A stretch of DNA of 32,000 bases from Polynucleobacter necessarius (GTDB lineage: Bacteria; Pseudomonadota; Gammaproteobacteria; Burkholderiales; Burkholderiaceae): contig NZ_LT606950.1 of the NCBI RefSeq assembly GCF_900095195.1, positions 456,164 to 488,163 on the forward strand, written 5' to 3'. The translations under genes were made by a program, and so were the position numbers. Each line of letters opens with the position of its first letter. Position 1 is the first letter of the stretch. Below the pieces are notes generated by a model. The model was not told the DNA's origin. It was given only the letters and a program-made list of their open reading frames with translations, and searched no databases. Positions 1-32,000 of the stretch are shown here, piece by piece.

Positions 1-371
1 CCGGCGGCGAGCGACAACGTATTTCAATTGCGCGCGCTCTGTGTATTTGATGACACACGTATGCCTTACAAAGAGAAGGTGACCGATACCCAATCTTGGT
101 ATGACATCCCAACTTGTAAAGAGCTGGCGTTCCAACCGATTACGTGATGTTGCGCGGTATCTTTATGGCGCCTGGTGTCACGCAAGAGCAAGTCGACTTT
201 TATGTTGAGTTATTCAAAAAAGCTCGCGCTACTCCAGAGTGGAAGGAATTCATGGCTGATGGTGCTTTCAACCAAACTTTCATGACTGGTAAAGAGTTCC
301 GGAATTGGCTCACACTTAACGAGGCTTTGCACAAGCAGTTAATGTCCGAAGCTGGTTTCTTGGCCAAATAA
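1..371 (+). pseudogene. tctC: TctC/Bug-family tripartite tricarboxylate transporter substrate-binding protein, 3' part, frameshifted
   Basis: Frame 1 from nt 1 reads PAASDNVFQLRALCVFDDTRMPYKEKVTDTQSWYDIPTCKELAFQPIT and stops at TGA 145-147. The family-typical C-terminus continues in frame 3 (ORF 144..371: VMLRGIFMAPGVTQEQVDFYVELFKKARATPEWKEF...). This implies a 1-nt frameshift near 142-147. The 5' end lies outside the window. Confidence 0.75.
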
Positions 372-386
372 TATGCAGTAAATACG

Positions 387-416
387 ATAGGACCTCCATT
401 CGGGGTCCTATTTTTT
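387..416 (+). terminator. Rho-independent terminator after tctC
   Basis: A 10-bp stem (ATAGGACCTC / GGGGTCCTAT, one G-U pair) with a 5-nt loop is followed by T6 at 411-416. Confidence 0.75.
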
Positions 417-430
417 AAGTAGGCGTCTTT

Positions 431-856
431 ATGACTGGCAGTATTAAGTTGGGCGCTAGCTGGGGTAGTGATGGTCCCGAAGCTGGCTATTTCCCATTTT
501 ATGTAAGCTTAATCATCATTATTTCGAGTGCTATTATGCTTTATCAAGCGGCAATTGTGAATAAGAAAAAGAAAATGGAATCCTTTGTCGACAAGGAGTC
601 TTTTGGTCAGGTCTTGGCGGTATTGCTCCCCGCATTTGTGTTTGTGCTGGGTGTTCAGCTTATTGGTATTTATGTTTCCTTGTTTGTCTACATTGCCATT
701 TTTATGGTTTGGTTGGGCAAATATCCAATTTGGAAAGCAGTGGCAGTCGCGCTTGGCGTGAGTGCAGCTCTCTACTTCATGTTTGAATATTGGTTCCAGG
801 TTCCAATGCCACACGGCTCATGGATCAACCCACTCGAATTCTTGGGTGTGAATTAA
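431..856 (+). CDS. tctB: TctB-family small membrane subunit of the tripartite tricarboxylate transporter
   Basis: The 141-aa ORF has about four hydrophobic helices and sits between tctC and tctA. It carries the GPxxGYFPF motif region typical of TctB. The frame looks intact. Confidence 0.7.
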   Translation: MTGSIKLGASWGSDGPEAGYFPFYVSLIIIISSAIMLYQAAIVNKKKKMESFVDKESFGQVLAVLLPAFVFVLGVQLIGIYVSLFVYIAIFMVWLGKYPIWKAVAVALGVSAALYFMFEYWFQVPMPHGSWINPLEFLGVN

Positions 857-896
857 ACAATAACTATTAAAAAAGATTAGAAAAAAAGAGTCCAAG

Positions 897-1683
897 TTAG
901 AAGAAATTAGCGCTCTATTCAGCGGCTTTGCCGTTGCAATGACACCCTTTAATTTATTGCTCATGCTCGCTGGTGTAACACTGGGTGTGATCATCGGCGT
1001 TTTGCCTGGTCTTGGTGGTGCGAATGGCATTGCGATTCTGTTGCCGTTGACATTTACGATTCATCATGCTCTCCTGTATCTATTGGGGTGCGTTGTTTGG
1101 TGGTGCAATTACTTCGGTACTGTTCAATATTCCGGGCGAACCCTGGTCGGTAGCGACTACCTTTGATGGTTACCCCATGGCACGTAATGGCAAAGCAGGT
1201 GAAGCATTAACGGCCGCATTTACCTCTTCATTTGTTGGTGCGTTCATTGCGAACGTGATGACCACGTTCTTGGCGCCATTGGTTGCGAAGTTTGCTCTGC
1301 AGTTTGGCCCGCCTGAATTCTTCTCGGTGTACTTGCTGACCTTCTGTAGCTTTGTGGGTATGAACAAGGGCTCACCATTCAAGACCATTTCTGCCATGAT
1401 GCTCGGTTTTGCATTAGCAGCGGTAGGTATGGATACCGTTACCGGTCAATTGCGTTTGACATTCGGTCATGCAGAATTGATGCGCGGTTTTGATTTCTTG
1501 ATCGCGGTGATTGGTTTGTTTGGTATTGGTGAGATTCTTCTCTCAATGGAAGAGGGTCTAGCATTCCAAGGCGCAGCTGCGAAGATTCGTGGCAAGGTCG
1601 TTCTGGAAACATGGAAGCAGTTGCCGAAATACTGGGCGGCTTCATTGCGCAGTTGCTTAATTGGTTGCTGGATGGGTATTTGG
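897..1683 (+). pseudogene. tctA: TctA large permease subunit with probable start loss, small out-of-frame deletion and 3' truncation
   Basis: TctA-like sequence starts at (L)EEISALFSGFAVAMTPFNLLLMLAGVTLGVIIGVLPGLGGANGIAILLPLTFT in frame 0, with TTA 897 where a start would be expected. Near 1058 the homology jumps to frame 1 (FIMLSCIYWGALFGGAITSVLFNIPGEPW...) and about 6 conserved residues are missing. TctA similarity ends at ...CLIGCWMGI (about 1683), roughly half of a normal ~500-aa TctA. Unrelated sequence follows in the same open frame. Confidence 0.85.
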
Positions 1684-1713
1684 ATTAATCAATCTGCAAG
1701 AAGGGCATTTTTA

Positions 1714-2091
1714 GTGAAGCTACCCAAGGATTTGCCTTCAGACGACGCATTGATTCAGGGCTTTGAGGATCAATATCTAGGCTACATTCCCAAAAAGATT
1801 GGTCGCGAACCATTGAAGGAATTGGCAATCTTGCATCGAAAAATAAATGATCTAGAAAAATACAAGCGTCAGCTAGGAACGGGTGTATTTGCATTGATGG
1901 GAAGTGCTGGAATGAGTGTTTTCTCAAAAAGAGAGCTAATAAGCTTGCTCTCTGAGCAGGCTAAATCCTTGAGGCCTGTTTATGCAATGATCGATGAACG
2001 CCTAGAGCACTTAAAGAGTGAGTTGGCTCAAACAAACCAGATCTTTAAGCGTGGCAATGATGCTTGCTATGAAAGAAGGTTAGTGGCATGA
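1714..2091 (+). CDS. Hypothetical soluble protein, unknown family; start uncertain
   Basis: The non-TctA part of ORF 1066..2091 reads VKLPKDLPSDDALIQGFEDQYLGYIPKKIGREPLKELAILHRKINDLEKYKRQ...ACYERRLVA. A possible GTG start at 1714 follows AAGAAGGG. The stop overlaps the next ATG (GCATGAAT, an ATGA overlap). I recognise no family. Confidence 0.3.
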   Translation: MKLPKDLPSDDALIQGFEDQYLGYIPKKIGREPLKELAILHRKINDLEKYKRQLGTGVFALMGSAGMSVFSKRELISLLSEQAKSLRPVYAMIDERLEHLKSELAQTNQIFKRGNDACYERRLVA

Positions 2092-2400
2092 ATAGATTTC
2101 TGCAAAAAATTCCTGGATATCAGGAATATAAGCCTGGGTTAGAGGCCAAAGTATTGAATGAGTTTCCATTATTTACTTTATTGGGTCTACTAGCGATCGC
2201 CTTACCAAGCTATTTGGCCAGATTGGTTCTCTCAAATAGAGGGCAAAGGATCGTGGATATTCTTGTAATAGGAACCGAAATATTTTTTAGGGATGGTCTT
2301 GACCTTAGCGATTGCTGCATTCATTATTAAGCTATCAAAGGGACCAGCCTATATTGCTGATGCATACCCTTTGTATGATTTCGATAAGCCCAAAGATTAG
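2088..2400 (+). pseudogene. Hypothetical two-TM membrane protein, frameshifted at a T6 run
   Basis: ORF 2088..2330 reads MNRFLQKIPGYQEYKPGLEAKVLNEFPLFTLLGLLAIALPSYLARLVL...ILVIGTEIFF. After T-run 2283-2288 a coherent continuation lies in the next frame: GMVLTLAIAAFIIKLSKGPAYIADAYPLYDFDKPKD, ending at TAG 2398-2400. Confidence 0.5.
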
Positions 2401-2433: not shown

Positions 2434-2865
2434 ATGCGAAGCTGGTTAATGAAAAGAAATTGTTCGTTTTCGCCAAAACAGGTGGGATTGTTTTATTTAT
2501 CGATTGTGAGTTTTTCACTCTTGGTGGCTTTTTCCTTCCTATTCATTGGGGTGTGGATGATTATCATCTTTATTTCGATTGAGATCATGGCTTTAACCAT
2601 GGCCCTATATGTTTACAGTCGTCATGCACTCGATTATGAAAAGATCACCATTATTGGTAAGCAATTGTTATTTGAGCGCAGTTGGGGAGGCAAAGTACAG
2701 GTAGAGGAATTTAATACTGTCTGGACGAAGTTGGTGCATAAATAGGAAGGTCGTCGGGATTTAGTGCTGGCAACCTCTACAAAAGAAGTTCCGATTGGCT
2801 ACTTTGTCGTTGCCAATCAACAAGAGCAGTTTGAACGAGATCTTGGAAGTTATCTTGGACTTTAA
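2434..2865 (+). pseudogene. DUF2244-family membrane protein with an in-frame TAG
   Basis: MRSWLMKRNCSFSPKQVGLFYLSIVSFSLLVAFSFLFIGVWMIIIFISIEIMALTMALYVYSRHALDYEKITI...NTVWTKLVHK is followed by TAG at 2743-2745. The same frame then reads EGRRDLVLATSTKEVPIGYFVVANQQEQFERDLGSYLGL up to TAA 2863-2865, matching the usual DUF2244 C-terminal layout. Confidence 0.65.
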
Positions 2866-2883: not shown

Positions 2884-3342
2884 ATGAAATCCAATGTATT
2901 GGTAATAATGTGTGCAGCTATCGGTATTGCAGTCAGCGGCCTAGCAGTAGCGCAGAATGCTTCAGTAGGCTCGATCAAAATTGAGAATGCCTATACCCGT
3001 GCTACGGCTCCTGGCCAGCAAGTTGCCGGCGGCTTTCTGAAGATTGAAAATAAGGGTGCTGCCGACCAATTGGTTTCTGCAAGCTCCCCAGTAGCAGGTG
3101 AAGTGCAGTTGCATGAAATGGCGATGGAAGGCAATGTCATGAAGATGCGACAAGTTAAGGACATCCCGGTGCCGGCAAACGGATCGGTAGAGCTTAAGCC
3201 AGGCGGTTTGCACATCATGTTTATGAATATCAAGGCGCCATTAGCTGCCGGAGAAACTGTGCCGGTCAAGTTAAAGTTTGCTAAAGCAGGCGATGTTGAA
3301 GTCAAAATGCCCGTGAATGCAACTGCACCCATGAAGCATTAA
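2884..3342 (+). CDS. Periplasmic copper chaperone PCu(A)C (DUF461 family)
   Basis: AGGAG lies 6 nt upstream of ATG 2884. The protein has a signal peptide and an HxM...HxM copper-binding pattern (LHEMAMEGNVMKM...GGLHIMFMN). Confidence 0.85.
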   Translation: MKSNVLVIMCAAIGIAVSGLAVAQNASVGSIKIENAYTRATAPGQQVAGGFLKIENKGAADQLVSASSPVAGEVQLHEMAMEGNVMKMRQVKDIPVPANGSVELKPGGLHIMFMNIKAPLAAGETVPVKLKFAKAGDVEVKMPVNATAPMKH

Positions 3343-3420: not shown

Positions 3421-5115
3421 TCAGCTTAGATTTAAATCCAAATCGGTTACCGCACCTTTGCTAGCACTGCTGGCTAGGCTTGCATACTTCGCTAACAGTC
3501 CGCGGGTATAGCGTGGCTTGGGTTGCTTCCACGCAGCGCGACGCTTGGCAATTTCTTCATCGCTGACATTGAGCTGAATCAGGAGCTTATGAGCATCAAT
3601 GGTTACGGAGTCACCTTCATTAATGAGCGCAATCGTGCCGCCAACATAGGCCTCGGGAGCCACGTGACCAACGACCATCCCCCAGGTGCCACCAGAGAAG
3701 CGACCATCCGTAATAAGACCTACGGATTCACCGAGGCCTTGGCCAACAAGGGCAGATGTCGGAGAGAGCATCTCCCGCATGCCAGGACCGCCTTTAGGGC
3801 CTTCATAGCGAATCACCACGATGTCGCCATCCTTGATCTTTTGAGCCATGATGGCTGCCATCACATCGTCTTCTGAATCAAAGACACGAGCAGGACCAGT
3901 AATAGAGGGGTTCTTCAGTCCGGTAATTTTGGCAACACAGCCTTCGGGAGAGATGTTGCCCTTCAAGATAGCCAAGTGACCTTGTTTGTATAAAGGGTTA
4001 TCTAATGTGCGAATCACTTTTTGATCGGCGCGTGGCACAGAAGGAACGTCTTTTAGAACTTCAGCAATGGTTTTGCCGGTAATGGTCATGCAATCACCAT
4101 GTAATAGGCCGCCATCTAATAAAATCTTCATCACTTGTGGGATGCCGCCTGCTTGATGTAAATCCGTAGCGAGGTAAGTGCCAGAGGGTTTCATATCCAC
4201 GATTGCTGGAACACGTTTACGAATGCGCTCAAAATCATCAATCGTCCAATCGATTTCAGCGGCGCTAGTAATGGCCAAGAAATGCAATACCGCATTGGTT
4301 GATCCACCAACTGCCATGATCACGCTTACGGCGTTCTCAATCGATTTCTTGGTAATGATGTCGCGTGGGCGCAAATTATTCTTAATGGCTTCCACCAAAA
4401 CACGTGCAGACTCAGCAGCGCTAGCGACTTTTTCAGCATCTTCATTCGCCATGGCAGAAGAGTAGGGGAGACTCATGCCGAGGGCCTCAAAGGAAGAGCT
4501 CATCGTGTTAGCGGTATACATACCACCACAGGATCCACTGCCTGGGCAAGCATGTTGCTCAACACCCTTTAGATCCTCTTCACTCATGCGGCCTGAAGTA
4601 AATTCACCAACGGCCTCAAATGCGGAAACAATGTTCAGATCTTTGCCTTTGTAATGACCGGGCTTGATCGTGCCACCATAAACATAAATAGCCGGCACAT
4701 TCGTGCGCGCAATGGCCATCATGCCGCCAGGCATATTTTTATCGCAACCACCAATCGCTATTACACCGTCTTGCCATAAACCATTTACGCAAGTCTCAAT
4801 GCTGTCCGCAATCACCTCGCGTGATACGAGAGAATATTTCATGCCCTCGGTACCCATACCGATGCCATCGGATACGGTAGGTGTACCAAACATCTGCGCT
4901 TTTGCACCCGCTTCTTCTAGCGCAGTGACAACCGCATCACTTAATTTTTGTAAACCGCTATTACAGGGAGTGATTGTGGAGTGGCCATTTGCAACGCCAA
5001 CCATCGGTTTAGAAAAATCCTTTTCTTGATATCCCATGGCGTAATACATCGAGCGGTTAGGCGCGCGAGCGACTCCATCGGTGACCATGCGTGAGCGTTC
5101 ATTAAGGCGTTTCAT
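3421..5115 (-). CDS. ilvD: Dihydroxy-acid dehydratase
   Basis: The 564-aa ORF shows full-length IlvD hallmarks: [57 protein letters not shown]-like [17 protein letters not shown] precedes the ATG. Confidence 0.97.
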
Positions 5116-5303: not shown

Positions 5304-6299
5304 TTGGTCTATACCCAAAATAAGTTCCCAGCCATTCGTCAAGAGGCTTTTAAAAATGCACGAGAGGCGTTAGGTCTGAGCGTTCAGGATCTCTCGCAAA
5401 TGTCGTGCTACTCGGTACGTCAGATCGAGCAGATCGAGAACGGCGAGTCCAGTTCTTTTTATGGCGCTCAAGTCAAATTTACTGCTGCAAAAAAAGTCGC
5501 TGGCTTATTAAAACTCTCTGAAGAAAATGCCCTCGACTTTAGCGAGGTAAACGCTCTTAAGAAAACTGGGGCATCGACGACTGAGTCATCTGATGTAAAG
5601 GTGCAGGAGAGTGCCGTGCCTCCCGCGCCGCAAAGCGTTTCCGAAAAAGATTCTGTGCCAACAACACCTGCACCAAAACAGAAATCGTTAAAGTTAGAAG
5701 TATTAAGCTCTGCATCTGTAAAGAGTGCTCATCCACAGAAAAAGATTTTCTTGCTTGTGGCAATTGCAGCAGCCTTTGTATTTTCAATTGTGAACTTGCG
5801 CCCATTATTTTTTCCGGAGCCCGTTAAAGAAGAAATTGTGGTGGTGGAAGAAGTGGTGCCGGCGAATCCGCCCACGGATGCTGATGCAAAGAGCGCTCCA
5901 GCAAACTCTGAGCCAGCGGCAGTGGTCGCTTCCGCACCAGCTCCTGTGGCTGCCCCCGTTTCTACTGAATGCCCGCCTGCCGATACCAATGTGGCGACTT
6001 ACAAACCCGATGCTCCGAAAAAAGCAGGGGATATGGTTTATTTACAATCGAAAACGGCACAAACGGTTTGTGTAACCGATGCGAGTGGTAAAACGCAAAA
6101 TAAAACATTAGAGCCTGGCGTTGGTGCCAGTGTTTACGGCAAGCCGCCATTCAAGGTGTTGACGACTGGACAGGCGGCGGTAGATTTGTTTTATCAGGGC
6201 GCTAAGGTGCGCTTATCTAATACGGTTAATAAAACGATCTTATTGGAGTCAGATGAAATCATTCAGCCGATTAGTTCGACAGATTCTCAGTTACGCTAA
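5304..6299 (+). CDS. RodZ-like HTH membrane protein (N-terminal XRE-type HTH, single TM, C-terminal DUF4115-like domain)
   Basis: The N-terminus AREALGLSVQDLSQMSCYSVRQIEQIENGE is an HTH. A low-complexity Pro/Ala linker and the TM helix IFLLVAIAAAFVFSIVNL follow. The C-terminal beta domain reads VYLQSKTAQTVCVTDASGKT...FKVLTTGQAAVDLFYQGAKV. The start (TTG 5304) is uncertain. Confidence 0.6.
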   Translation: MVYTQNKFPAIRQEAFKNAREALGLSVQDLSQMSCYSVRQIEQIENGESSSFYGAQVKFTAAKKVAGLLKLSEENALDFSEVNALKKTGASTTESSDVKVQESAVPPAPQSVSEKDSVPTTPAPKQKSLKLEVLSSASVKSAHPQKKIFLLVAIAAAFVFSIVNLRPLFFPEPVKEEIVVVEEVVPANPPTDADAKSAPANSEPAAVVASAPAPVAAPVSTECPPADTNVATYKPDAPKKAGDMVYLQSKTAQTVCVTDASGKTQNKTLEPGVGASVYGKPPFKVLTTGQAAVDLFYQGAKVRLSNTVNKTILLESDEIIQPISSTDSQLR

Positions 6300-6334: not shown

Positions 6335-8376
<2,042 letters not shown>

Positions 8377-8420: not shown

Positions 8421-8957
8421 TTACGCGTGTTCTTTGTTGTAACGCTCAATACCTTCCAGAATTTCTTTATGAGCCTCAGCAACACCACCCCAGCCTTTTA
8501 CTTTGACCCATTTACCTTTTTCGAGATCTTTGTAGTGCTCGAAGAAGTGTTGGATCTGATCCAAGCGCAATGGGTTCATATCTTCTGGCTTTTGCCAGTG
8601 GGTGTAGATAGGCAAAATCTTATCTTCTGGAACAGCTAAAAGTTTGGCGTCTTGGCCTGCTTCATCTTCCATTAACAAAATACCAATCGCACGGCAGCTA
8701 ACAACCACACCTGGAATTAATGGGAAAGGCGTAATCACGAGGACGTCAACTGGGTCGCCATCACCAGCAATCGTTTTATTGATGTAACCATAGTTACATG
8801 GGTAATGCATTGAAGTACCCATAAATCGGTCTACGAATATGGCGCCACTTTCTTTATCCACTTCATACTTGATTGGATCCGCGTTCATAGGGATTTCAAT
8901 AATGACGTTGAAGCTCTCAGGGATCTTTTTGCCTGTCTTGACGTTGTCGAGACTCAT
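8421..8957 (-). CDS. ppa: Soluble inorganic pyrophosphatase
   Basis: The 178-aa ORF carries family I PPase motifs ([29 protein letters not shown]) and is intact. Confidence 0.95.
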
Positions 8958-9127: not shown

Positions 9128-11119
<1,992 letters not shown>

Positions 11120-11231: not shown

Positions 11232-11407
11232 ATGAATTTTGAATGGGATTTGGCTAAAAGTAACGCATGCCAAATTTCCCGAAATTTCGATTTTGCATTG
11301 TAGTTGTTTTTACCAAAAGACAAAATGCCATTCGAATTATTTCGGCCAGAAGAGCTAACAGTAGGGAGGTCAAGCGTTATGAAAAAAATTGTGCGGGTAA
11401 AAGTTGA
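11232..11407 (+). pseudogene. BrnT (DUF497) type II toxin remnant: middle deleted, frameshifted
   Basis: The N-terminal fragment MNFEWDLAKSNACQISRNFDFAL ends at TAG 11301-11303 (FEWDxxK is the DUF497 start motif). The C-terminal fragment in another frame, VVVFTKRQNAIRIISARRANSREVKRYEK, matches the DUF497 IRIISARxA motif. About 30-40 central residues are absent. Confidence 0.7.
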
Positions 11408-11783: not shown

Positions 11784-15092
<3,309 letters not shown>

Positions 15093-21927: not shown

Positions 21928-22128
21928 TTAATAGTGCGGTGGGATTTCATCTTTGAGGCTGGTGGCGCCATGCCCGCCAGAGCTGGCCTGTTCTTTCGTT
22001 GCCTTTAACTCACGATACAGAAATTCAATTTGTTATTTCTGTTTGTAAACTGTCTCATTAAGTTTTCCAATAAGGTCTTCAGCAAAGCTGAGCTTGATTT
22101 CGAGATTGGTGATTCTGTCCTCAGTCAT
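21928..22128 (-). pseudogene. slyX: SlyX-family coiled-coil protein with an in-frame TAA
   Basis: MTEDRITNLEIKLSFAEDLIGKLNETVYKQK is followed by TAA at 22033-22035. The same frame continues QIEFLYRELKATKEQASSGGHGATSLKDEIPPHY to TAA 21928-21930. This matches the SlyX pattern (RIxxLExKxAFQExxIxxLNxxVxxQQxxI). Confidence 0.8.
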
Positions 22129-22539: not shown

Positions 22540-23188
22540 ATGGTGCTGCTGGTACGGTGCTTTACTGGCGCGGCATATATTGGGACTAGTAGCTACGTCA
22601 TGATGACAAATTCTGAGTTTCCCGCAAAGTCTGTTGGGGAATTTATAGCGTTAGCTAAAGCGAATCCAGATGCCTATAACTATGCAAGCGCTGGAAATGG
22701 TAGTGCCTCGCATCTAGCGATGGCCTATTTCGATAGCATGGCTGGAATTCAGCTAGTGCACATAACCCACCAAAGGGGCTGGCGATGCAATTGCCGAGCT
22801 CTTAGCTGGTCGCGCTCAAGCTGTGATTGCGGCCAATGTTGCGGCACTGCCTTTTGCCAATGACCCAAGAGTTCGCTTTTTAGGAGTTTCCTCCGAGAAG
22901 CCTTCACCTTTTGTTCCTGGCGTTCCACCAATTGGTAATACCGTGAAGGGGTATGTTTTTGATAGTTGGTTCGGTCTTTTGGCCCCTGCTGGCACGCCTA
23001 TTTCTGTGATCGGCAAAATGTAGTCCGAAATGGGTAAATTGCTTAAACAACCTGAAATCATTGAGCGTATGCGTCGCCAAGGGATCGAGATAGGAAATTT
23101 AACTTCTGCTGAATTCAATCAACTTTTAGTTCGGGACTATGTTCGGATGGCGAAGGTGGTGAAAGTCTCCGGTGCTAAGACGGATTAG
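22540..23188 (+). pseudogene. Bug/TctC-family solute receptor: 5'-truncated, frameshifted, with an in-frame TAG
   Basis: Homology starts mid-protein (IGTSSYVMMTNSEFPAKSVGEFIALAKANPDAYNYASAGNGSASHLAMAYFDSMAGIQLVHI) with no signal peptide or N-terminal half. A frameshift near 22770 leads to KGAGDAIAELLAGRAQAVIAANVAALPF...LLAPAGTPISVIGKM. TAG at 23021-23023 is followed in frame by SEMGKLLKQPEIIERMRRQGIEIGNLTSAEFNQLLVRDYVRMAKVVKVSGAKTD. Confidence 0.85.
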
Positions 23189-23203: not shown

Positions 23204-23325
23204 ATGACCCGAATTACTGAATTACGTTTGCCTCTTGATCACGGTATAGATGATCTTGAGCTTGCTCTTCTAAAGAGATTAAGTATTCCATAGAAAGATC
23301 TAATCTCATTCAAGATCTTCAAGCG
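23204..23325 (+). pseudogene. N-terminal ~40-codon remnant of a COG2509-type FAD-dependent oxidoreductase
   Basis: MTRITELRLPLDHGIDDLELALLKRLSIP, then TAG at 23291-23293, then KDLISFKIFKRSY. This matches the conserved N-terminus of the family (ITELKLPLDH...FxIFKRSYDARKK). The remainder is deleted. Confidence 0.55.
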
Positions 23326-23829
23326 TAGCTATTCTGCGTTGAGCATACTGATTCCAATGCACGAGTTTCCAGTCATCTCTAGGATCCCATCGTTTTTGCA
23401 TACGTGCTTTTGCTTCACTTTCCTCAAGGACAATCCAAGCAATGGAGATCTTGGTTTGCGGTGGAATTCCTAATGCATCAGGATTCAACATTCTGCCACT
23501 CTGAATTTCCCGGGAAAATGGTCCAACCAGAATCACGTTAACTCCTAGAAGTAGGTTTTCTCGGGCAATATCAAGCAAACCTTGGTATTCCCAATCGCGG
23601 AGATTTTCAAGATAGTAGGGGCTATCTCGATCATTGGGTTTGGGTGATCAACTCCATGACATGAGCGCTATACGAGCCATACGCTGTGTCTTTATCCAGA
23701 AAGAAAAAGTCTTCGCTTGTCCTTTCAATGATTAGAGGGAGGGCTTTTTGACCAAGGTCGACTTACCAGTTCCTGCGTGACCAGCAAAAAGAATGAGGCG
23801 TGGGGCGGTTGGGGTAAGTTTGCAGACCA
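23306..23829 (-). pseudogene. P-loop kinase-like ATP-binding protein (AAA_33-like), frameshifted
   Basis: MVCKLTPTAPRLILFAGHAGTGKSTLVKK contains a Walker A motif. At least two frame changes follow (ALPLIIERTSEDFFFLDKDTAYGSYSAHVMELITQT / PNDRDSPYYLENLRDWEYQGLLDIARENLLLGVNVILVGPFS...). Only the last 90 codons form a track ORF. Confidence 0.6.
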
Positions 23830-23897
23830 TGTAACGCTAGTCTCGCAGAATTTCTTGGAAATTTCTTCCATTTTTTGGAAGAGACGATAATGTCGCC

Positions 23898-25811
23898 ATG
23901 GCTTTAATCGTACTTACTGATGCAAAACTGGCTTTTGGCCACGTTGATCTTCTTGCAAATACTGCATTCTCACTGGAATCTGGTGAACGTGTTGGCTTAA
24001 TCGGTCAAAATGGCACCGGTAAATCCTCTCTATTAAAAATTTTGGCTGGTATTGAAAAGATGGATGATGGTCTTTTGCAATATCAGCAGGGTCTACGTAT
24101 CTCATACGTTCCTCAGGAGCCGATTTTTGAGGCCAAAGAAACCATCTTTGAGGCAGTCTCAAAGGGTGTTGCGGAAGCAAAAGCACTCAGAGAAGAGTAT
24201 GGGGCTCTGAGCGTAGGCGATTGGGATGATGATGCTCATCACCGTTTAGATGAAGTGCAATCCAAACTTGAGGCATTGAGCGGTTGGAACTGGGAGCAAC
24301 GCGTGCATGAAACGCTGGATCGCCTCCATTTGGATGCAGACCAAAAAATTAGCAACTTATCGGGGGGTACCAAGATGCGAGTGGCATTGGCTCGTGCACT
24401 CGTCGAAATGCCTGATGTCCTGCTATTAGATGAACCAACGAACCATTTGGATTTGGATTCGATTGCGTGGCTGGAGGAGTTGTTAAAAGAATACCAAGGT
24501 TCCGTAATATTAATTACCTACGATCGTGCATTCTTGGATAACGTATGCACGCAAATCGTAGAGTTGGATCGCGGTATTTTGCGAAGTTATCCTGGAAACT
24601 TTACGCAATATGAAGTTCTCAAGGAACAAGAGCTCAATGCCGAGTCCTTGGCTAATGCGCGTGCAGATAAATTATTGGCGCAAGAAGAGGTGTGGATTCG
24701 GAAAGGCGTTGAAGCTCGTCGCACTCGCAGTGTTGCCCGTATAGCTCGCTTAGAAAAGCTGCGTGCAAGCCGAGCTGAGCGCAGAGATGCGATGGGGCAG
24801 GTGAAGATGGCGGTTTCTGCTGGAGAGCGTAGCGGCAAGATTGTTGCGGAGCTGGAGAACGTCTGCAAGTCATACGATAGACCCATTGTGAAGGATTTCA
24901 CAGCGACGATATTGCTCGGCGACAAGGTCGGGTTGTTGGGTCCGAACGGTGCTGGTAAAACCACCTTACTCAAATTAATTCTCGGAACAGTTAAGCCTGA
25001 TTCAGGTACCGCCACGATGGGAACACGTATTGAAGTGGCTTATTTTGATCAAATGCGTGAAGGCTTAAATCTCAATGCCTCGCTAGAGGATTACATTAGC
25101 CCTGGTAGCGAGTGGATTGAGATTAATGGCAATAAAAAACATGTCAAAAGTTATCTAAGTGATTTCTTATTCGCACCTGAGCGTACAAATTCTCCAATAA
25201 GCACTCTGTCTGGTGGCGAGCGCAATCGCCTGCTGCTAGCCCGCTTGTTTGCCCGACCAGCCAATGTCTTAGTGCTCGATGAGCCCACTAATGACTTAGA
25301 TATTGATACCTTAGATTTGCTGGAGCAATTATTGCAAGACTATAAAGGGACTGTTTTCTTAGTCAGTCATGACCGTTATTTCTTGGACAATGTTGTTACC
25401 AGCATCATTGCGCATGAGGGTGATGGATATTGGCGTGAGTATGAAGGTGGTTATGAGGATTGGAAGATTCAAAAAGCCCGCTCAGAGCAGATTCGTGCGA
25501 ATAAAAATACGGCTAAGCCATCAACGAAATCAGAGACAAAAGCCCCCCGCACCCGAATCGAAAGCGGCCCCTAAAGGTAATGTGCAAAAGCTTAATGGCA
25601 AAGAGCGGCAAGAATTGGAATCGTTGCCTCAGCAAATAGAGGAATTGAAGTCTGAGCAGGCTGATATTGGAATTGAAATGAGTAATCCCGATCTATACAA
25701 GAATGATCGGGAATTAGCAGCGAGTATGCAGGCGCGCTTAGCGAAGTTACTGTTCAGTTAGAGCAAAAACTGCAACGCTGGGAGCAGCTTTTAAGCCGCT
25801 CCGAATCCTAA
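23898..25811 (+). pseudogene. uup: ABC-F ATPase Uup with two frameshifts in the C-terminal coiled-coil region
   Basis: Two ABC cassettes are present (GQNGTGKSSLLK / LSGGTKMRVALARAL / LLLDEPTNHLD; GPNGAGKTTLLK / LSGGERNRLLLARL / LVLDEPTNDLD). Frame 0 holds up to the C6 run 25543-25548. Frame 1 then reads KPPAPESKAAPKGNVQKLNGKERQELESLPQQIEELKSEQADI...MQARLA. After about 25741-25745, frame 0 resumes with EVTVQLEQKLQRWEQLLSRSES, ending at TAA 25809-25811. Confidence 0.85.
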
Positions 25812-25818
25812 GGGTTGC

Positions 25819-26138
25819 TTATTCCCCGCGCTTGAGGCGGGCACGTAACCCTGCTATCTCATCGAGTAGATCCAGCGCTAAAGCGACTCCGGGAACATTC
25901 AACTCGAGATCATGGGTTAAGTGAGCGGCCGTCTTGGCGCGTCTTAATGAATCGCCGCCAAAGCGCCATTTTCTGGAGAAGAGCCAGAGGGGCTAAGGAC
26001 TCCCTCGGTTACCCAAGACATAATTAATTCTTCCGGTGTACGGGATGCATGAGAAAGCTCCACAATGCTCATATGCACTTCATTCTCAACGACGCTTCCC
26101 TCAATCCAAGTAATGTTGGTGGTATTGATATTTGTCAT
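25819..26138 (-). pseudogene. cbpM: Chaperone-modulator CbpM (MerR-like), frameshifted
   Basis: The frame MTNINTTNITWIEGSVVENEVHMSIVELSHASRTPEELIMSWVTEGVLSPSGSSPEN breaks at about 25965. The conserved tail WRFGGDSLRRAKTAAHLTHDLELNVPGVALALDLLDEIAGLRARLKRGE lies in the adjacent frame and ends at TAA 25819-25821. Confidence 0.8.
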
Positions 26139-26142
26139 GGCA

Positions 26143-26615
26143 TCATCCCTTCAAATGCGTTCTTGGGTTGAAATCAAATGCTTTCTCAAATTGCTGGTAT
26201 GCCTCTTTAAGTGCATCGGTATCCGCTGGAGGTAGGGTGATAGTCGGAACTACAAAGAGGTCACCAGATTCTGCGCTAGGAATCCCCTTGCCCTTTAAGC
26301 GCATCTTGCGTCCCGCAACAGTCCCCGCCGGAATCTTGAGTCCAAGGTAGAGCCTGAGGAGTGGGGACATTTACTGTGGTGCCCAACGCGGCTTCCCATG
26401 GCGCCAATGGAATATCGATAAAGATATCTTTACCATCCACGCGGTAAATGGGGCTTGGGTGAAATTCAATTTCTAAATACAAATCCCCGGCGGGGCCTTC
26501 GCCGATACCAGGGCCACCTTGTCCCGATAAGCGCAGATTTTGTCCAGCCTTTATTCCTTTTGGAATGCTAACGGCTAACTTGCGCTCTTGAGTGCTGACA
26601 TGACCCTGAGAATTA
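26143..26615 (-). pseudogene. cbpA: Curved-DNA-binding DnaJ homologue CbpA: J domain and N-terminal half deleted, frameshifted
   Basis: Only the C-terminal substrate-binding region is present: GNSQGHVSTQERKLAVSIPKGIKAGQNLRLSGQGGPGIGEGPAGDLYLEIEFHPSPIYRVDGKDIFIDIPLAPWEAALGTTVNVPTP. After a frameshift near 26350 it continues LKIPAGTVAGRKMRLKGKGIPSAESGDLFVVPTITLPP...FDFNPRTHLKG. Homology begins abruptly at about 26615. Confidence 0.85.
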
Positions 26616-27803
26616 CCGGTTTGGCATACTTATAGACTTCCATTAAAGGACCGGTGCCTCCTTTCATTGAGGAGCCTAGTGATTTTTCAAAAATATTTGC
26701 AAGGCCGCCAATTTGGTTTCCAGGGCTAACTTGGCCGTTAATTTGCACATCTCGACCAACCGAATATTCATCTTTCCACCAACGAATACGTTTGATGAGC
26801 TTTTCACCAATCTCCTTGCTTGCTGCGCGACGGGTGAGGGGTGTTCTACACCATAAATTTCTGGGGTTTCAGACAAGATGCCAGTGCCACCATGACGAGA
26901 CAAGATATCAATCGCAGCGCCTAATGCTGGGTTTGCAGTGATAGAAGAGAAGCCATCGGAACCACCACATTGCAAGCCGACAGTGAGATGGCTTGCTGAT
27001 ACCGTTTGGCGTTTAGCCTTATTTGCTTCTGGCAGTAGCGCTTTCACCGCTTCAATTCTAGCCTCAATGGTCTTGCGGGTACCGCCTGATTCTTGCATGA
27101 TGAAGGTGTGCAAGGTAGAGCCTTCCTTTAGATCTTCCTGCTCCATTAACCCTTTCAACTGATTGCGCTCACATCCAAGTCCTACGATTAATGCTGCGGC
27201 AAGGTTAGGATGGCGGGCATATCCTGATATCGTGCGTCGTAGTAATTCCATGGGCTCATCGCTCATTTCCATGCCACAACCAATACTATGGCTGAAAGCG
27301 ACAACGCCATCCACATTCGGAAAATCTTTTAAGCGTTCCGCAGTGAAATATTCTGCAATTTTGTTTACTACAGTGGCAGAGCAGTTGACGGTCGATAAAA
27401 TTCCAATAAAGTTTCTTGTGCCAACCTTGCCATTTGGTCGAACATATACCTAGCGAAAACTTTACGAGCCGCAGCCAAGTGCCTGCTGGCTACAAAATTG
27501 CCGCCAAAAAGATACTCAAAGGTGAGCCAATTCTCAAATACAACGTCACTGTTGGATTTGCCAATACCGACATTGGGTCCGGCACAATGGTGCACAGCCA
27601 CAATACAGAATTTCGGGAATTTGATCGCGATTATGCGCATGCCAGCGAATACAAACCCACTCAAATGCTTCCTGAGTCTGAACGAGCCACCTTCCAAGGA
27701 TATCAGTGCCGATGCCCACATCAACACGAGCGACAACAATATTGTCATTTGGATGTAGACGAATGATCGGCCCAATAAGGCGCTTTTCAGAAATTTCAAT
27801 CAT
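26616..27803 (-). pseudogene. UxaA-family (altronate/galactarate-type) sugar-acid dehydratase: internal inversion, frameshift, 3' truncation
   Basis: The N-terminus MIEISEKRLIGPIIRLHPNDNIVVARVDVGIGTD is on the minus strand at 27803-27704. Residues IPSENFTSRSQVPAGYKIAAKKILKGEPILKYNVTVGFANTDIGSGTMVHSHNTEF...ATFQGY are encoded on the PLUS strand at 27444-27703. The minus strand resumes with VRPNGKVGTRNFIGILSTVNCSATVVNKIAEYF...VDGVVAFSHSIGCGMEM...LQCGGSDGFSSITANP. A frameshift lies at G-run 26838-26841. Homology ends at ...GGTGPLMEVYKYAKPV (about 26616). Confidence 0.85.
27444..27703. other. Inverted 260-bp segment inside the uxaA-like pseudogene, bounded by ATAT at both ends
   Basis: Reverse-complementing 27444-27703 in place yields one continuous frame: ...GIGTD-IPSENF...ATFQGY-VRPNGKVGTRN... 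The segment starts and ends with the palindromic tetranucleotide ATAT (27444-27447 and 27700-27703; GATATC at 27699-27704). Confidence 0.8.
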
Positions 27804-27828
27804 GGAACACTTTCGATATAGTAAGTTT

Positions 27829-28225
27829 TTATTCTGGTGTAGCGCCTGATTCTTAACGATGGGGCCCCACTTTGCGACTTCGGATTTGATGTATTCGCTG
27901 AGTTGGTTTGGCGTGCTTGTAATGACTTCAAAACCTTTGCTGCTGACTTGTCCTTTAATTTCTGGATTATTGAGTACGCTAATTAATTGAGAATTCAACT
28001 TATCAATAATTGCTTTTGGAGTATTGGCGGGTGCAACAATTGCATAAACTAACTCCACTTCATATTTCGGCACATATTCAGAAATTGCCGGGATTTCAGG
28101 TGCATTGGGTGATCTTTTGAGGCTAGTGATTCCGAGTGGAATTAATTTTCCGTTGGGACATATGGAAGTGCCGCTGGCGCACCAACGAGAGCGGTCTCAA
28201 TTTGTCCGCCCAGTACATCGGTTGT
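27829..28225 (-). pseudogene. Bug/TctC-family solute receptor remnant: N-terminal half deleted, two frameshifts
   Basis: Homology starts at TDVLGGQIETALVGAPAALPYVP directly downstream of an AAGGAG-like RBS. A 1-nt deletion near 28150 leads to NGKLIPLGITSLKRSPNAPEIPAISEYVPKYEVELVYAIVAPANTPKAIIDKLN...AKWGPIVK. The natural end, ESGATPE with TAA at 27829-27831, is out of frame. The open frame therefore runs on into the uxaA start. Confidence 0.8.
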
Positions 28226-28281: not shown

Positions 28282-28800
28282 ATGAAAATTACTCAAGCAA
28301 CTTTTTTCCTGTATCGATACCGTTGATCGAGCCCATCAAAATGGCTAATGATGTAGTGATTGATATAAAACAGTATTGCTGAGCTTGCGCGATGAGCAGG
28401 GGCGTATTGGGCGGGTGGCGTCAATTGCCCCAATGATGACTGGTGAGACCCTCGATAGTTTGTGCGCAAGTTTAGGGTACCTCTTGGATAAGGTGCGCAA
28501 ATTCGAGTGGAATGATCCGCGCCATTTCTCAATCCAATTTAATACCGTTCTGTATGGTAACCATTCAGCAAAATCTTGTCTTGAAATGGCATTACTAGAT
28601 CTATACACACAACGTGAATCCGTGCCATTGTGGAAGTATCTTCGCACCCTTAATCCGAATGTCAATAACCTAGAGTTAAAAGCCATCCCCATTCTTCGAA
28701 TGTTGGGAGGCAGTCTTGAAAAGGAGTTGGAGGATGCAAAAATATTTCGGGAGTCAGGGTTTAAGCATTGGAAAATAAAGATCGGGTCCATTATCCCATC
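28282..28800 (+). pseudogene. Mandelate racemase/muconate lactonizing enzyme (enolase superfamily): frameshifted, 3'-truncated
   Basis: ATG 28282 opens MKITQATFFLYR, and the frame breaks within about 20 codons. ORF 28376..28813 then carries the MR_MLE N-domain (DEQGRIGRVASIAPMMTGETLDS...NHSAKSCLEMALLDLYTQRESVPLWKYL) and the first barrel strand (GFKHWKIKIG). Homology stops there, so about 60 percent of the protein is missing. Confidence 0.75.
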
Positions 28801-28840: not shown

Positions 28841-29744
28841 ATGTTTAAAACTATATCTAAAAATAGAGTGTTGAGATCGGTATTCAGCACGGTGATTGGG
28901 GTGGCATTCTCCACCTCCGTCTTTGCGGCCTATCCTGACAAACCAATCAAAATGCTGATTGGTTATGCCCCAGGCAGTTCAACAGATATTGTGGGTCGCA
29001 TGATTGCAAATGATCTCAGTATGGTTTTGAAGCAGCCAATTGTTGTCGAAAATCGTGGTGGTGCGGCGGGTAGCTTGGCTGCTGATGCGGTCGCTAAAAG
29101 TGCGCCAGATGGTTACACCATTCTTTTTGCTCAAAATGGACTTGCAATCAATGTGGCCGCTAATCCGAAGTTACCTTTTAACGGTCAAAAGGATCTCGTG
29201 CCTGTTGTTGGTGTTGCAGCGACTCCGCATATATTGATTGTGAATAACAATTCACCTGCAAAGACTGTGGCTGTTATTCCAGAGTCGCCTCGGCATCAAG
29301 CTCACCAACATTCCGTACAAAGGCACTGGTCCAGCGTTAACCGACCTGTTGGGCGGGCAAGTCGACCTCCTTTGCGACCAAACTACACAAACTATCCATT
29401 ACATCAAGGATGGCCGCGTAAAAACCTATGGGACAACCACTCTCAAACGTTTACCAGCCATTCCGAACTTACCAACTCTGAACGAGCAGGGCCTCAAAGG
29501 CTTTGAGATAAAAGTTTGGCATGGTGTTTACACACCAAAAGGTGTTCCAAAACCTATCTTGGATAAAATTAATGCAGCTTTGAAGAAGGCATTGAATTCT
29601 CCTGAAGTAAAGAAACGTTTAGATGATTCGAATATTGATATTGTTCCAGCAAGCAAAATGACGCCCAAGGGACTTCAAGATCATCTTGACTCTGAAATCA
29701 ACGTCTGGGGTCCAGTCATTCGTAAAGCCAATATTCCAGACTAA
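28841..29744 (+). pseudogene. Bug/TctC-family solute receptor with an internal out-of-frame deletion
   Basis: GGGGGAG RBS, a signal peptide and the N-domain are intact (AYPDKPIKMLIGYAPGSSTDIVGRMIAN...PHILIVNNNSPAKTV). Near 29275-29290 about 30 conserved codons are missing (the AKANPGxxNYxSxGxGSxxHL block). The rest, IKLTNIPYKGTGPALTDLLGGQVDLLCDQTTQTIHYIKDGRVK...WGPVIRKANIPD, is in another frame (ORF 29349..29744). Confidence 0.9.
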
Positions 29745-29768
29745 GTTTGTCAACGGATGTCTGAAAAT

Positions 29769-29795
29769 AAAAAACCAGCTTCGGCTGGTTTTTTT
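29769..29795. terminator. Bidirectional hairpin terminator
   Basis: AAAAAACCAGCttcgGCTGGTTTTTTT lies between convergent genes, with an A-run and a T-run flanking a GC stem and a tetraloop. Confidence 0.8.
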
Positions 29796-29830
29796 ATTGG
29801 TGATTACTCATCAGACATCCATCAAAACGC

Positions 29831-30463
29831 TTAACCTGGTCTAAACAAATATCCTGAACGTGCTTTTTGTTTGCGCTTCTGCAAGAAAGCCTCCAGCAAA
29901 CTGACTATTGCCCAAATTGCCAATACAGGATCTAGCAGGTAATCCCACAAGTTCGTGGACTCATGCCAATGCACTGACCAAGCAATGATCGCCAAACCTA
30001 TCAACCAAACACCCTTGACCCAGTTGGCAAGTCCACAGATAACCGCAAAGACCAGAACGGCAACTAGAAAAGTAGTAGAACCATATCCCCAAGCATAGGG
30101 ATCAACCATACCAACCCCGAGCGCGAAAGGATAAAAGCCTAAAGCAATCAGACTAATACTGAAAGAAAAGGCCATGGGGGTTTTTGAAGGTTTTGGAAGT
30201 AACGTGCTCCAGAGTAATAGCATCGTTACGACACTCAAATCACCGATCACTCCTCTCACATACGCAGCCAAAGGAAGCTCTAGTGATAAACCCAAAGGCC
30301 AGAAAAAGAGGTTTACCAAAACGAGCAACAAAAATACTTTAGCAAGAGAAGGAAAGGCTTTCTGAGAAATTTTCTGCAAAAGCCAGATGATGACTACCCC
30401 ACAACTAATTGCCACTTCGCCCAAGGCAATAGCTTGCGAAATCGAGTGCATTTGGATATTCAT
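29831..30463 (-). CDS. Polytopic membrane protein, unknown family
   Basis: The 210-aa ORF has about 6-7 hydrophobic helices and a basic C-terminal tail (QKRKQKARSGYLFRPG). Its ATG 30463 overlaps the stop of the upstream gene (ATGA). Confidence 0.65.
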   Translation of the reverse strand: MNIQMHSISQAIALGEVAISCGVVIIWLLQKISQKAFPSLAKVFLLLVLVNLFFWPLGLSLELPLAAYVRGVIGDLSVVTMLLLWSTLLPKPSKTPMAFSFSISLIALGFYPFALGVGMVDPYAWGYGSTTFLVAVLVFAVICGLANWVKGVWLIGLAIIAWSVHWHESTNLWDYLLDPVLAIWAIVSLLEAFLQKRKQKARSGYLFRPG

Positions 30464-31740
30464 TTTGAAGACTCCTTTGCGCTTTCATCTGGAGCATTTT
30501 GATCTTGCGGCAATTGACCAAAGGTACGCTTTAGCCAAGCACTGGGAAAATAGATATGGCGGATTTTTTTACGATCCCAGGTATATACCAAATGCGCATC
30601 ATGACCATTGCTTGAAATGAGGTATGGGTACGAAAATTCTTTGCGCTCTTGATCCGGTAATGCCTCATCGTTTTCAAGCGTCTCCACCACATGCCATTGG
30701 TTGGATTGCGGATGATTCATTAAGAGCACTAAGCGGTGTCGCCCTGCTTCAATATTATTGAGCACCAAAATACGAGCACTATTCTGCAGCTTTAATGTGG
30801 CAATTGCCGAATTGGGATTGGCTATTTCCAAATCCGCGGCAGGCTGCCATGCTTGACCAGCATTTTGTGTCTCACCCATCGGAATCTGCTTGGGCATGCC
30901 AGCACTACGTGTTTGGCGAAAATAAGCTGTTGCATCCTGAGGCCCATTGACAAAAACAGCTGGTTGAATGGCTCCTCGACCAGAACTCATACGGCGCTTA
31001 TCCATCACCTGCGCACCTTCGATCCACAGAAACTCTCCAAAACGGCCAATCCATTCATGATAGGCCGGCAATCCTAAGCGGCCATCCACAAATGTCAGTG
31101 CGGGTGACTTCACTAGCGTACTGAGATTGATCAGGGGTGACGTTATTAACCGCTTCGGCCTGCCCCACGTTAAACCATCGTCATCTGAAATGATGGTCGA
31201 AATTGAGCTACCCGCCCAACCACCAATCGATACCGTCACAAAGAATAATTGCAAACGACCATCAGCCATCCGCGCTGGCACAGGATTGCCCAATTTAGCG
31301 ATGTAACGTGACAAACCATTTTCTGCTGATACACGATCAATCACCACCGTTGGCGCTGCCCAAGCATTCGACTTTGTGTCATAAACGGCTGTATTAATCA
31401 CGACATCTGCAGCGCCCTCCCTGCTTCCAGCAAACCAAAATGCCCGCACATTACCATCACTGAGTGCAATGATTGAGGCGGCATGAACAGATGCCGCTCC
31501 AGTATCCGGCAACCAATCTGCCCGCAGGCCTGGAACGGATGGATTTACAGCCGTTTTTGATTTTGCTAAAGAGGGATTGGCTTGCTTTACTTCTGGGGTG
31601 ATATCTTTATCCGCATCCGTATTTGCATTTACAGAAACTTCGCTGGTTTGAAATGGGGCCCAAGCAGGTCGGCCATCAATATGAATAAAACCAAGCACTG
31701 CGGCAAGCAATAAAAAACAAAGTGCTATTACACGACTCAT
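30460..31740 (-). CDS. Exported BNR/Asp-box (sialidase-like beta-propeller) protein
   Basis: The N-terminal signal/anchor is MSRVIALCFLLLAAVLGF. A canonical Asp-box SDDDGLTWG (SxDxGxTW) is present, and the overall pattern resembles BNR_2 sialidase-like proteins (AFWFAGSREGA..., LQLFFVTVSIGGWAGSS). ATG 31740 overlaps the upstream stop (ATGA). The frame is intact. Confidence 0.75.
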   Translation of the reverse strand: MSRVIALCFLLLAAVLGFIHIDGRPAWAPFQTSEVSVNANTDADKDITPEVKQANPSLAKSKTAVNPSVPGLRADWLPDTGAASVHAASIIALSDGNVRAFWFAGSREGAADVVINTAVYDTKSNAWAAPTVVIDRVSAENGLSRYIAKLGNPVPARMADGRLQLFFVTVSIGGWAGSSISTIISDDDGLTWGRPKRLITSPLINLSTLVKSPALTFVDGRLGLPAYHEWIGRFGEFLWIEGAQVMDKRRMSSGRGAIQPAVFVNGPQDATAYFRQTRSAGMPKQIPMGETQNAGQAWQPAADLEIANPNSAIATLKLQNSARILVLNNIEAGRHRLVLLMNHPQSNQWHVVETLENDEALPDQERKEFSYPYLISSNGHDAHLVYTWDRKKIRHIYFPSAWLKRTFGQLPQDQNAPDESAKESSK

Positions 31741-32000
31741 CGACACGCATCCTTCACATTCAATACATCAGCGTTTGATGCTGGCGTTGCAATTAAGTAT
31801 TCCATCACAAAAAGGTGTTCACCCACTTGCCCCATTAGCATGGCTTTTATTTCGTCATTGGAATGGCGGGCTCTCATCTCCATTCGTTGTCCAACAATCT
31901 GGCAAGATTCACAAATGGCTGGTAATGTCCCAACAGGCGTGTGCACAGCAACGATGGGGTAGGCTTTGGTGAGAACCTCGAGATTGCTCGCATCTTTAGC
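31737..32000 (-). CDS. 3' end of an unidentified gene, first gene of the BNR operon; open to the window edge
   Basis: The frame is open from 32000 down to TGA 31737-31739: AKDASNLEVLTKAYPIVAVHTPVGTLPAICESCQIVGQRMEMRARHSNDEIKAMLMGQVGEHLFVMEYLIATPASNADVLNVKDACR. I recognise no family. Confidence 0.45.
   Translation of the reverse strand, partial: AKDASNLEVLTKAYPIVAVHTPVGTLPAICESCQIVGQRMEMRARHSNDEIKAMLMGQVGEHLFVMEYLIATPASNADVLNVKDACR

Follow-up and report, generated by a model that had tools for sequence, protein, structure and literature searches.

Polynucleobacter necessarius STIR1, a symbiont of Euplotes aediculatus with a genome of 1.56 Mb (CP001010), is the closest described counterpart of the DNA analysed here. 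The emended description of the species gives a genome of about 1.6 Mb with 44-46% G+C and many pseudogenes (PMC5018217). A review's account of Boscaro et al. 2013 reports 1,279 coding sequences and 231-460 pseudogenes, and states that more than 40% of the coding capacity was lost, that 13-18% is still visible as pseudogenes and that mobile genetic elements are absent (PMC4285135); as summarised in further reviews, symbiont genomes measure 1.5-1.9 Mb, derive from several independent acquisitions and have drift as their driver (PMC9539572, PMC11253213). Here we analyse one stretch of a P. necessarius chromosome, the 32,000 nucleotides (nt) at positions 456,164 to 488,163 of the forward strand of contig NZ_LT606950.1 (assembly GCF_900095195.1), referred to below as the window, and find that more than half of its genes are truly broken. 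With a probability of about 0.93, we interpret the window as chromosomal DNA of a symbiotic P. necessarius that is eroding through relaxed selection and drift inside Euplotes. This interpretation supports the recent relaxed selection in a host-restricted bacterium put forward in a preliminary description of the window, which also proposed the gene losses that we confirm below with minor corrections.

Lesions were called by aligning free-living Polynucleobacter proteins to the window with our own implementation of frameshift-aware protein-to-DNA dynamic programming and with tblastn. The reference loci were L126, L096, L098 and L105 for the left end of the window, L006 and L002 for 6-22 kb, L171 (Polynucleobacter sp. 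MWH-UH2A, CP061321.1) for 18-30 kb, and L176, which together with L177 and L178 provided the context for two uncharacterised genes, hyp195 and hyp104; a serS-based scan of genome contigs returned at least five Polynucleobacter loci. Free-living Polynucleobacter genomes and metagenome contigs are about 80% identical to the window in nucleotide sequence, with conserved gene order, and this alignment, which the preliminary description had recommended, confirmed the lesions. The same procedure applied to pairs of free-living genomes as a negative control detected no real lesion in 13 genes and found hppA unbroken in both free-living references; its single spurious call, in lolA, was due to an over-long start of the reference open reading frame (ORF).

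Across the whole 32 kb, 24 loci are disrupted, against 18 intact protein genes and a tRNA-Ser gene. Pseudogene remnants occupy 15.6 kb (about 49%), intact genes 14.6 kb (about 46%) and other sequence 1.7 kb, compared with 94.7% coding sequence in the free-living locus L171. The earlier count of about 20 broken and 23 intact loci was therefore right in direction, but its numbers slightly understated the damage. Split genes of the same kind were not found in free-living relatives, where every orthologue compared is one uninterrupted ORF, except brnT in the metagenome contig L102. The intact set consists of ilvD, nadE, glnB, ppa, trxB, ftsK, lolA, serS, the tRNA and a few small or envelope genes, and the core functions named at the outset all aligned without lesions.

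Nearly all of the damage first proposed is borne out: frameshifts of 1-2 nt (tctC, hppA, asmA, uup, cbpM), nonsense codons (DUF2244, slyX, the Bug gene TctC_a, asmA, x277 and the COG2509 and 17170 remnants), internal out-of-frame deletions (17 nt in tctA, 70 nt in hppA, 109 nt in brnT), truncations (tctA, cbpA, uxaA, MR/MLE, COG2509, TctC_a, TctC_b) and a single 258-bp inversion within uxaA. The out-of-frame lesion reported in the Bug gene at 28841 is real and proved to be a fusion of two different Bug genes, whereas the frameshift claimed for phnA was not recovered, the gene body lying in one frame and the lesion being a lost start codon. To these we add three broken genes that had gone unnamed, tctB, hyp195 and hyp104. 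Lesions cluster several to a gene (three each in hppA, x277 and uxaA, five in asmA), as expected once a gene is dead. The disrupted loci are as follows, with sizes in amino acids (aa).

1..371, forward: tctC pseudogene (TctC/Bug-family substrate-binding protein), 5′ end beyond the window; aa 225-339 of the 339-aa L126 orthologue align at 91% identity, with a 1-nt deletion near 124
419..856, forward: tctB, 5′-truncated relative to L126 and L096
897..1680, forward: tctA pseudogene; aa 1-267 of 499 align at 96% identity, with the 17-nt deletion near 1062 and the 3′ 232 codons deleted
1678..2091, forward: hyp195 remnant (uncharacterised family of 185-195 aa), 5′-truncated, aa 59-195 left
2088..2397, forward: hyp104 pseudogene; compared with its 104-aa orthologue in L176, 2 nt are deleted near 2289
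2434..2865, forward: DUF2244 membrane protein gene with nonsense codon TAG 2743 at Gly115 of the L098 orthologue; the alignment runs on to 2862, and the reference protein matches Pfam DUF2244
9128..11116, forward: hppA (H+-pyrophosphatase) pseudogene, 95% identical to the 686-aa L006 and L002 proteins; 2-nt insertion at 10535, 1-nt deletion at 10639, 70-nt deletion at about 11008
11232..11400, forward: brnT toxin pseudogene; 109-nt deletion after 11297 relative to L105
17170..17560, forward: tentative remnant of a probable small secreted protein; TAG 17308 interrupts a signal-peptide-like ORF that resumes in another frame
18010..18840, reverse: x277 pseudogene (277 aa, histone-H1-like N-terminus), 81% identical to the L002 orthologue; +1 at 18633, -1 at 18566, TAA 18444 replacing Arg
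19301..19642, reverse: phnA/YjdM, start lost (ATG to ACG); aa 2-113 in one frame at 88% identity
19680..21501, forward: asmA pseudogene; the 603-aa L002 AsmA aligns across three frames, with four frameshifts and TAG 21298 breaking the gene into at least four ORFs
21928..22128, reverse: slyX with nonsense codon TAA 22035 at Gln32 of L171
22397..22558, reverse: PIN_3 toxin remnant, aa 80-136 left, with frameshifts
22552..23188, forward: Bug/TctC_a pseudogene, aa 118-328 left; +1 at 22764, TAG 23021
23204..23338, forward: remnant of a COG2509-like FAD protein, aa 1-45 of 542; TAG 23291
23330..23830, reverse: AAA_33 kinase pseudogene, aa 1-168 of 198 left; -1 near 23752, -2 at 23639
23898..25811, forward: uup (ABC-F ATPase), frameshifted near its 3′ end (+1 at 25503, -1 at 25736)
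25819..26138, reverse: cbpM pseudogene; -1 at 25969
26143..26614, reverse: cbpA pseudogene, aa 170-326 left
26614..27803, reverse: uxaA-like (GD_AH) dehydratase pseudogene, aa 1-397 of 515; -1 at 26840
27829..28222, reverse: Bug/TctC_b pseudogene, aa 190-320 left, two frameshifts
28282..28786, forward: MR/MLE-family pseudogene, aa 1-170 of 381 left; 1-nt deletions at 28303 and 28365
28841..29744, forward: chimeric Bug pseudogene; aa 1-140, at 83% identity to L171 TctC_c, run out of frame into aa 165-320 of another Bug gene at about 29272

Damage is heaviest between 22363 and 29744, where no gene is intact and where, relative to L171, ten whole genes are gone (luciferase-like, YaeQ, hemN, an outer-membrane protein (OMP) gene, 3HCDH, SGL, GntR, Ldh_2 and others). 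The luciferase-like and YaeQ genes are the L171 neighbours of PIN_3, and the next four L171 genes after the MR/MLE gene are likewise missing. The remainder of the COG2509 gene was lost in a deletion of about 3.9 kb, together with hemN, the OMP gene and the 3′ part of AAA_33; the stumps of COG2509 and AAA_33 meet at 23330-23338, so that one deletion explains both truncations, and a single deletion similarly explains those of cbpA and uxaA, which both end at the junction 26614. Within uxaA, aa 35-120 are encoded at 97% identity on the opposite strand, and re-inverting 27446-27703 restores collinearity with L171 and with the sister strain described below. The uup ORF ends at 558 aa, compared with 636-646 aa in homologues, its frameshifts cutting off the C-terminal domain. 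At the left end, a deletion of about 125 nt took the start codon of tctB, some 30-34 codons including the first transmembrane helix, and the ribosome-binding site, and the Pfam TctB match begins at profile position 24. The hyp195 remnant is joined in frame to the tctA stump, which yields a misleading chimeric ORF of 341 aa (1066..2091).

The remnants retain 85-97% amino acid identity to their free-living orthologues at about 80% nucleotide identity (hppA 95%, tctA 96%, uxaA segments 97-99%), which implies that purifying selection maintained them during most of the period after their lineage diverged from its free-living relatives. A more recent time scale is provided by a sister strain, 98.9-99% identical to the window in loci L172-L175, found in Logan assemblies SRR32119647 and SRR8208349 and in ENA assembly ERZ27248707. 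The comparison covers the window from 22.5 kb rightward, and the uup block in the three assemblies (L173-L175) is 99.97% identical from one to another. A homology search with ftsK, in which cluster representatives reached at most 89% identity, did not contain the sister strain, and a literature search found no paper mentioning its sample accessions.

The two strains share the truncation of TctC_a and its TAG 23021, the 3.9-kb COG2509-AAA_33 deletion, the AAA_33 frameshift near 23752, the cbpA-uxaA deletion and one cbpA frameshift. The sister lacks about nine small indels of the window, including those at 22764, 23639, 25503, 25736, 25969, 26358 (cbpA has one private frameshift), 28303 and 28365, and it also lacks TAG 23291 and the uxaA inversion. 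Conversely, the sister alone has deletions of 20, 30, 174 and 367 nt, two frameshifts in cbpM and one in cbpA, about five small indels in all besides the larger deletions. It retains aa 85-210 of TctC_b in place of the segment left in the window, and the second Bug gene of the chimera carries a different internal deletion. A 5.6-kb inversion of block 22597-28223, from TctC_a to TctC_b (L173 7090-12127), is likewise confined to the sister, the window keeping the gene order of free-living L171, so that rearrangement continues between strains that differ by 1%. Decay in these strains, with old shared lesions and new private ones, is ongoing and lineage-specific. As a separate observation, Pirin and NMT1 fragments adjoin the 5.6-kb inversion (L173 6715-6966 and 12442-12482).

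The small indels that separate the two strains are unevenly distributed along the DNA. The 5,718 aligned nt of pseudogene and intergenic sequence contain 67 substitutions and 16 small indels, whereas 2,170 nt of intact genes contain 18 substitutions and no indel, with about 6 expected (P about 0.002). In the sister, uup (P0121, L173 8372-10285) is an intact 637-aa ORF that differs from the window protein at 11 positions; eight of these changes are derived in the sister and fall at sites that do not vary among 39 Polynucleobacter homologues (R135C and G300W, for example). The gene thus appears to be failing by different routes, through frameshifts in the window and through radical replacements in the sister. 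In the retained BNR and 210-aa genes at the right end, nine nonsynonymous and five synonymous changes, small numbers, are suggestive of relaxed selection.

Six of the intact window proteins correspond to RefSeq entries labelled Polynucleobacter necessarius (taxid 576610), and seven (ilvD, serS, nadE, ppa, BNR, the 210-aa protein and the holin-family protein) are encoded on one contig of 1,550,368 bp. Most named free-living relatives found here have contigs of 1.8-2.2 Mb, the smallest being 1.75 Mb, so the contig points to a reduced genome. We infer both the host association and the cause of decay, the latter in agreement with the literature. The bacterium would descend from free-living freshwater Polynucleobacter and now live inside Euplotes ciliates, where genes for transport, catabolism, stress response and envelope accessories may no longer be needed and selection on them would be relaxed. 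Small populations would let damaging mutations fix. A point mutation, small indel or deletion would strike a gene first, and further lesions could then accrue neutrally. A deletion bias that involves little or no homology at the junctions and operates without insertion sequences (IS) would shorten and fuse the remnants. Core genes would meanwhile stay under purifying selection and remain intact.

One objection to this interpretation is that an undamaged genome only looks broken because of errors in sequencing or assembly, such as homopolymer indels and mis-joins. Many lesions are indeed indels of only 1-2 nt, those missing from the 99%-identical sister include both uup frameshifts, and small indels are mildly enriched near runs of at least five identical bases (18%, against a background of 4%). 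Yet 23 of the 28 small indels lie away from such runs, 11 runs of six or more bases in intact genes are unbroken, and homopolymer errors do not account for nonsense substitutions, gene fusions, an inversion or deletions that span 17-109 nt or several kb. All 16 indels lie in the 5.7 kb of dead DNA, the 2.2 kb of intact genes having none. Neither the window nor the triple-assembled sister has a marked excess of private small indels, and three independent assemblies, made from different runs, show the same shared lesions. Uniform sequencing error cannot generate such a pattern, and as far as the assemblies permit a test, the assembly error that the preliminary description had named as a possible refutation was not borne out; we regard it as very improbable. 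Were IS or another kind of mobile element driving the decay, as happens in Sodalis, Serratia symbiotica or Shigella, this would fit the large deletions and the two inversions, both of which IS recombination can produce. A search of the window revealed no repeat family longer than 42 nt, no transposase-sized unassigned ORF and no IS element, in line with the absence of IS claimed earlier, and its unassigned sequence totals 1.7 kb in pieces of at most about 230 nt. Three sister-private deletion junctions that we examined have 0-2 nt of microhomology, and inspection of the alignment at the inversion ends revealed no obvious inverted repeats, so no specific rearrangement mechanism can be named. 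Published accounts, moreover, describe no proliferation of mobile elements in P. necessarius, and we give a mobile-element origin practically no credence.

A third possibility is that decay is local, the window being an eroding accessory island while the rest of the bacterium, perhaps free-living, is under normal selection. The most decayed block, 22.4-29.7 kb, consists of accessory transport and catabolism genes, the 49% of sequence in remnants greatly exceeds the pseudogene share of 13-18% given for STIR1, and gene content does vary among free-living strains, L171 being without asmA and a response regulator being present only in L081 and L082. Against an island, broken genes (tctCBA, hppA, x277, asmA) are interleaved with core genes over the whole window, and sister contigs outside it contain more fragmentary genes, with pieces of HpcH, PsiE, FMN_dh and Pirin. 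The contig measures 1.55 Mb, compared with about 1.7-2.5 Mb for free-living genomes (seen here and in the literature), and the source organism belongs to a species described as an obligate endosymbiont with many pseudogenes. A purely local process therefore strikes us as hardly tenable, and genome-wide erosion of a symbiont remains the interpretation that we adopt.

Several observations nevertheless weigh against symbiotic erosion and temper our confidence in it. Host association is not visible in the sequence and rests on the species name and the literature. Since 49% remnant exceeds the 13-18% of STIR1, by measures that differ and are only roughly comparable, the window is an unusually decayed and unrepresentative stretch. 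Each window-private indel of 1-2 nt rests on one assembly, so that some could be errors, and five of the 28 small indels adjoin runs of at least five identical bases. In free-living L102 brnT is frameshifted (at about 3000-3300), which means that decay of the toxin with retention of the antitoxin is not specific to symbionts. The changes in the BNR and 210-aa genes amount to only 14 substitutions. Finally, three calls are less certain: tctB still has an ORF with a new ATG; phnA could still start at Met16, its first in-frame ATG, which falls after the zinc ribbon's first CxxC; and the 17170 remnant has no homologue in any of the loci collected or in Pfam.

The intact features of the window are the following.

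2884..3342, forward: PCu(A)C/LpqE-like copper chaperone, aligned full-length and lesion-free
3421..5115, reverse: ilvD, 563/563 aa at 94% identity (WP_114662066.1)
5304..6299, forward: RodZ-like helix-turn-helix (HTH) membrane protein, full-length relative to L126 and L098; Pfam HTH and RodZ_C
6335..6673, reverse: glnB (P-II), 98% identical to L006
6757..8376, reverse: nadE, 538 aa, lesion-free (WP_114662069.1)
8421..8957, reverse: ppa, 178/178 aa (WP_114662070.1)
11379..11720, forward: brnA-type antitoxin (HTH), an orphan; 113-aa ORF collinear with L105 and L102; Pfam HTH_3 and MqsA_antitoxin
11784..12746, reverse: trxB, 320/320 aa at 95% identity
12780..15092, forward: ftsK, 767/767 aa at 95% identity
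15096..15797, forward: lolA, full-length relative to L002
15824..17146, forward: serS, 440/440 aa (WP_114662074.1)
17627..17716, forward: tRNA-Ser (CGA), by ARAGORN and Rfam RF00005
17718..18008, forward: small lipoprotein, full-length relative to the 89-aa L002 orthologue
19074..19292, forward: DUF465 protein, 94% identical to L171
21498..21845, reverse: Phage_holin_4_2-family membrane protein, 115/115 aa at 93% identity
22141..22362, reverse: 73-aa DUF1653-like protein
29831..30463, reverse: 210-aa membrane protein (WP_231968451.1), of equal length in the sister strain with 5 aa differences
30460..31746, reverse: BNR_2 sialidase-family protein (Pfam BNR_2, 3.8e-68; WP_114662099.1), with homologues of 415-428 aa
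31737..32000, reverse: PMT-family glycosyltransferase gene, represented by its 3′ end and open at the edge of the window; aligned in frame to the last 87 aa of the sister strain's 573-aa PMT protein

An uninterrupted run of intact genes follows DUF2244, comprising PCu(A)C, ilvD, the RodZ-like gene, glnB, nadE and ppa; the exact GlnB protein is also present on freshwater metagenome contigs. We considered whether the lack of a response regulator between the RodZ-like gene and ilvD was a further deletion, and rejected this because free-living L126 also lacks the regulator. An Rfam scan of the window detected no family besides the single tRNA-Ser, and a Pfam search gave no match for the 17170 remnant, hyp195, hyp104 or the 210-aa protein.

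The free-living counterparts of hyp195 and hyp104 form a conserved pair of genes (about 190 aa and 104 aa; L176 449-1347), the stop codon of one overlapping the start codon of the other; neither matches a Pfam family. In freshwater betaproteobacterial contigs the pair is found next to DsrE-like or DUF2244, PCu(A)C and DUF2946 genes, and these neighbours suggest that it is part of a copper-related cluster. Homologues of hyp195 (P0363, P0366, P0367) were collected by exhaustive HMMER search, with genomic context from L176-L178, and the exhaustive search for the pair yielded only nine representative proteins at E <= 0.001.

A hairpin terminator, AAAACGCCTAGCAATGCTAGGCGTTTT, stands between the convergent hppA and trxB genes. 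It is single in the insert-free loci L002 (5889), L004, L098 and L108, and doubled wherever a cassette sits between the two genes, its copies flanking the cassette (window 11138-11179 and 11720-11761; L006 4931/5912; L105 3028/3725; L102 2444/3136; L126 2831/3812; L095 2927/3175). The cassette is brnTA in the window, L105 and L102, and a vapBC-like pair of AbrB-type antitoxin and PIN toxin in L006; the L126 insert is about the same size and that of L095 shorter, at about 250 nt. The gap between hppA and trxB appears to be a hotspot at which toxin-antitoxin cassettes integrate and the terminator becomes duplicated.

Two further differences surround the tRNA-Ser gene. The interval from serS to the tRNA contains a 480-nt insert (17147-17626) that houses the 17170 remnant, compared with 40-50 nt in L006 and L002. 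Directly 3′ of the tRNA, L002 has about 5 kb (11468-16513) including a Bug/TctC gene, where the window has nothing (17716-17718); either L002 carries a tRNA-linked island here or the symbiont lineage has undergone a deletion. Beyond it, free-living x277 (L002 16729-17562) encodes a lysine- and alanine-rich, histone-H1-like N-terminus with a weak Pfam HC2 match, and a well conserved C-terminal domain of about 200 aa with no Pfam match.

Pseudogene-rich, IS-free erosion is already published for this symbiont, and in this respect our finding is a correct rediscovery, which describes anew a system known from the literature as a model of how reductive evolution begins in the absence of mobile elements. 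It also illustrates that genome erosion can be recognised, and the organism correctly named, from raw sequence before any database search. The added value is modest: lesions mapped to the base over 32 kb, grounds for accepting them as real, and the identification of a very close sister strain. Only the comparison with that strain, which separates ancestral from ongoing decay, is possibly new: two strains about 1% apart may each have gained their own frameshifts, deletions and inversion in dead genes and lost uup in parallel, a proposal that we advance tentatively and with more doubt than confidence. If the pair has not been analysed before, it would offer a calibration, in near real time, of how pseudogenes decay in a protist endosymbiont, from which the ratio of small indels to substitutions (about 0.24), the deletion bias and the order of gene death could be measured.

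Among known systems, STIR1 resembles the window most closely. Both bear the same species label, with about 1.55-1.56 Mb and about 45-46% G+C, and the window, at about 46%, falls within the 44-46% described for the species. As outlined in the published summaries, STIR1 has hundreds of pseudogenes and has lost accessory metabolism and transport without IS proliferation (PMC4285135, PMC5018217); the small indels, stop codons and deletions of the window are lesions of the STIR1 type, and the match to the P. necessarius endosymbiont drawn in the preliminary description is accordingly upheld. The length of the contig (1,550,368 bp) and a taxid at species level suggest that the strain is not STIR1 itself. 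Independently acquired Euplotes symbionts, as abstracted from Boscaro et al. 2017, have genomes of 1.5-1.9 Mb in which coding DNA is reduced and pseudogenes are more numerous, and a second P. necessarius genome in the same accession batch measures 1,825,583 bp. The recently host-restricted bacteria Mycobacterium leprae, Sodalis and Serratia symbiotica are like the window in having a large share of genes inactivated by several lesions each while the core is kept. In Sodalis and Serratia symbiotica, however, massive IS expansion accompanies decay (PMC4285135), whereas the window has none and its host is a protist.

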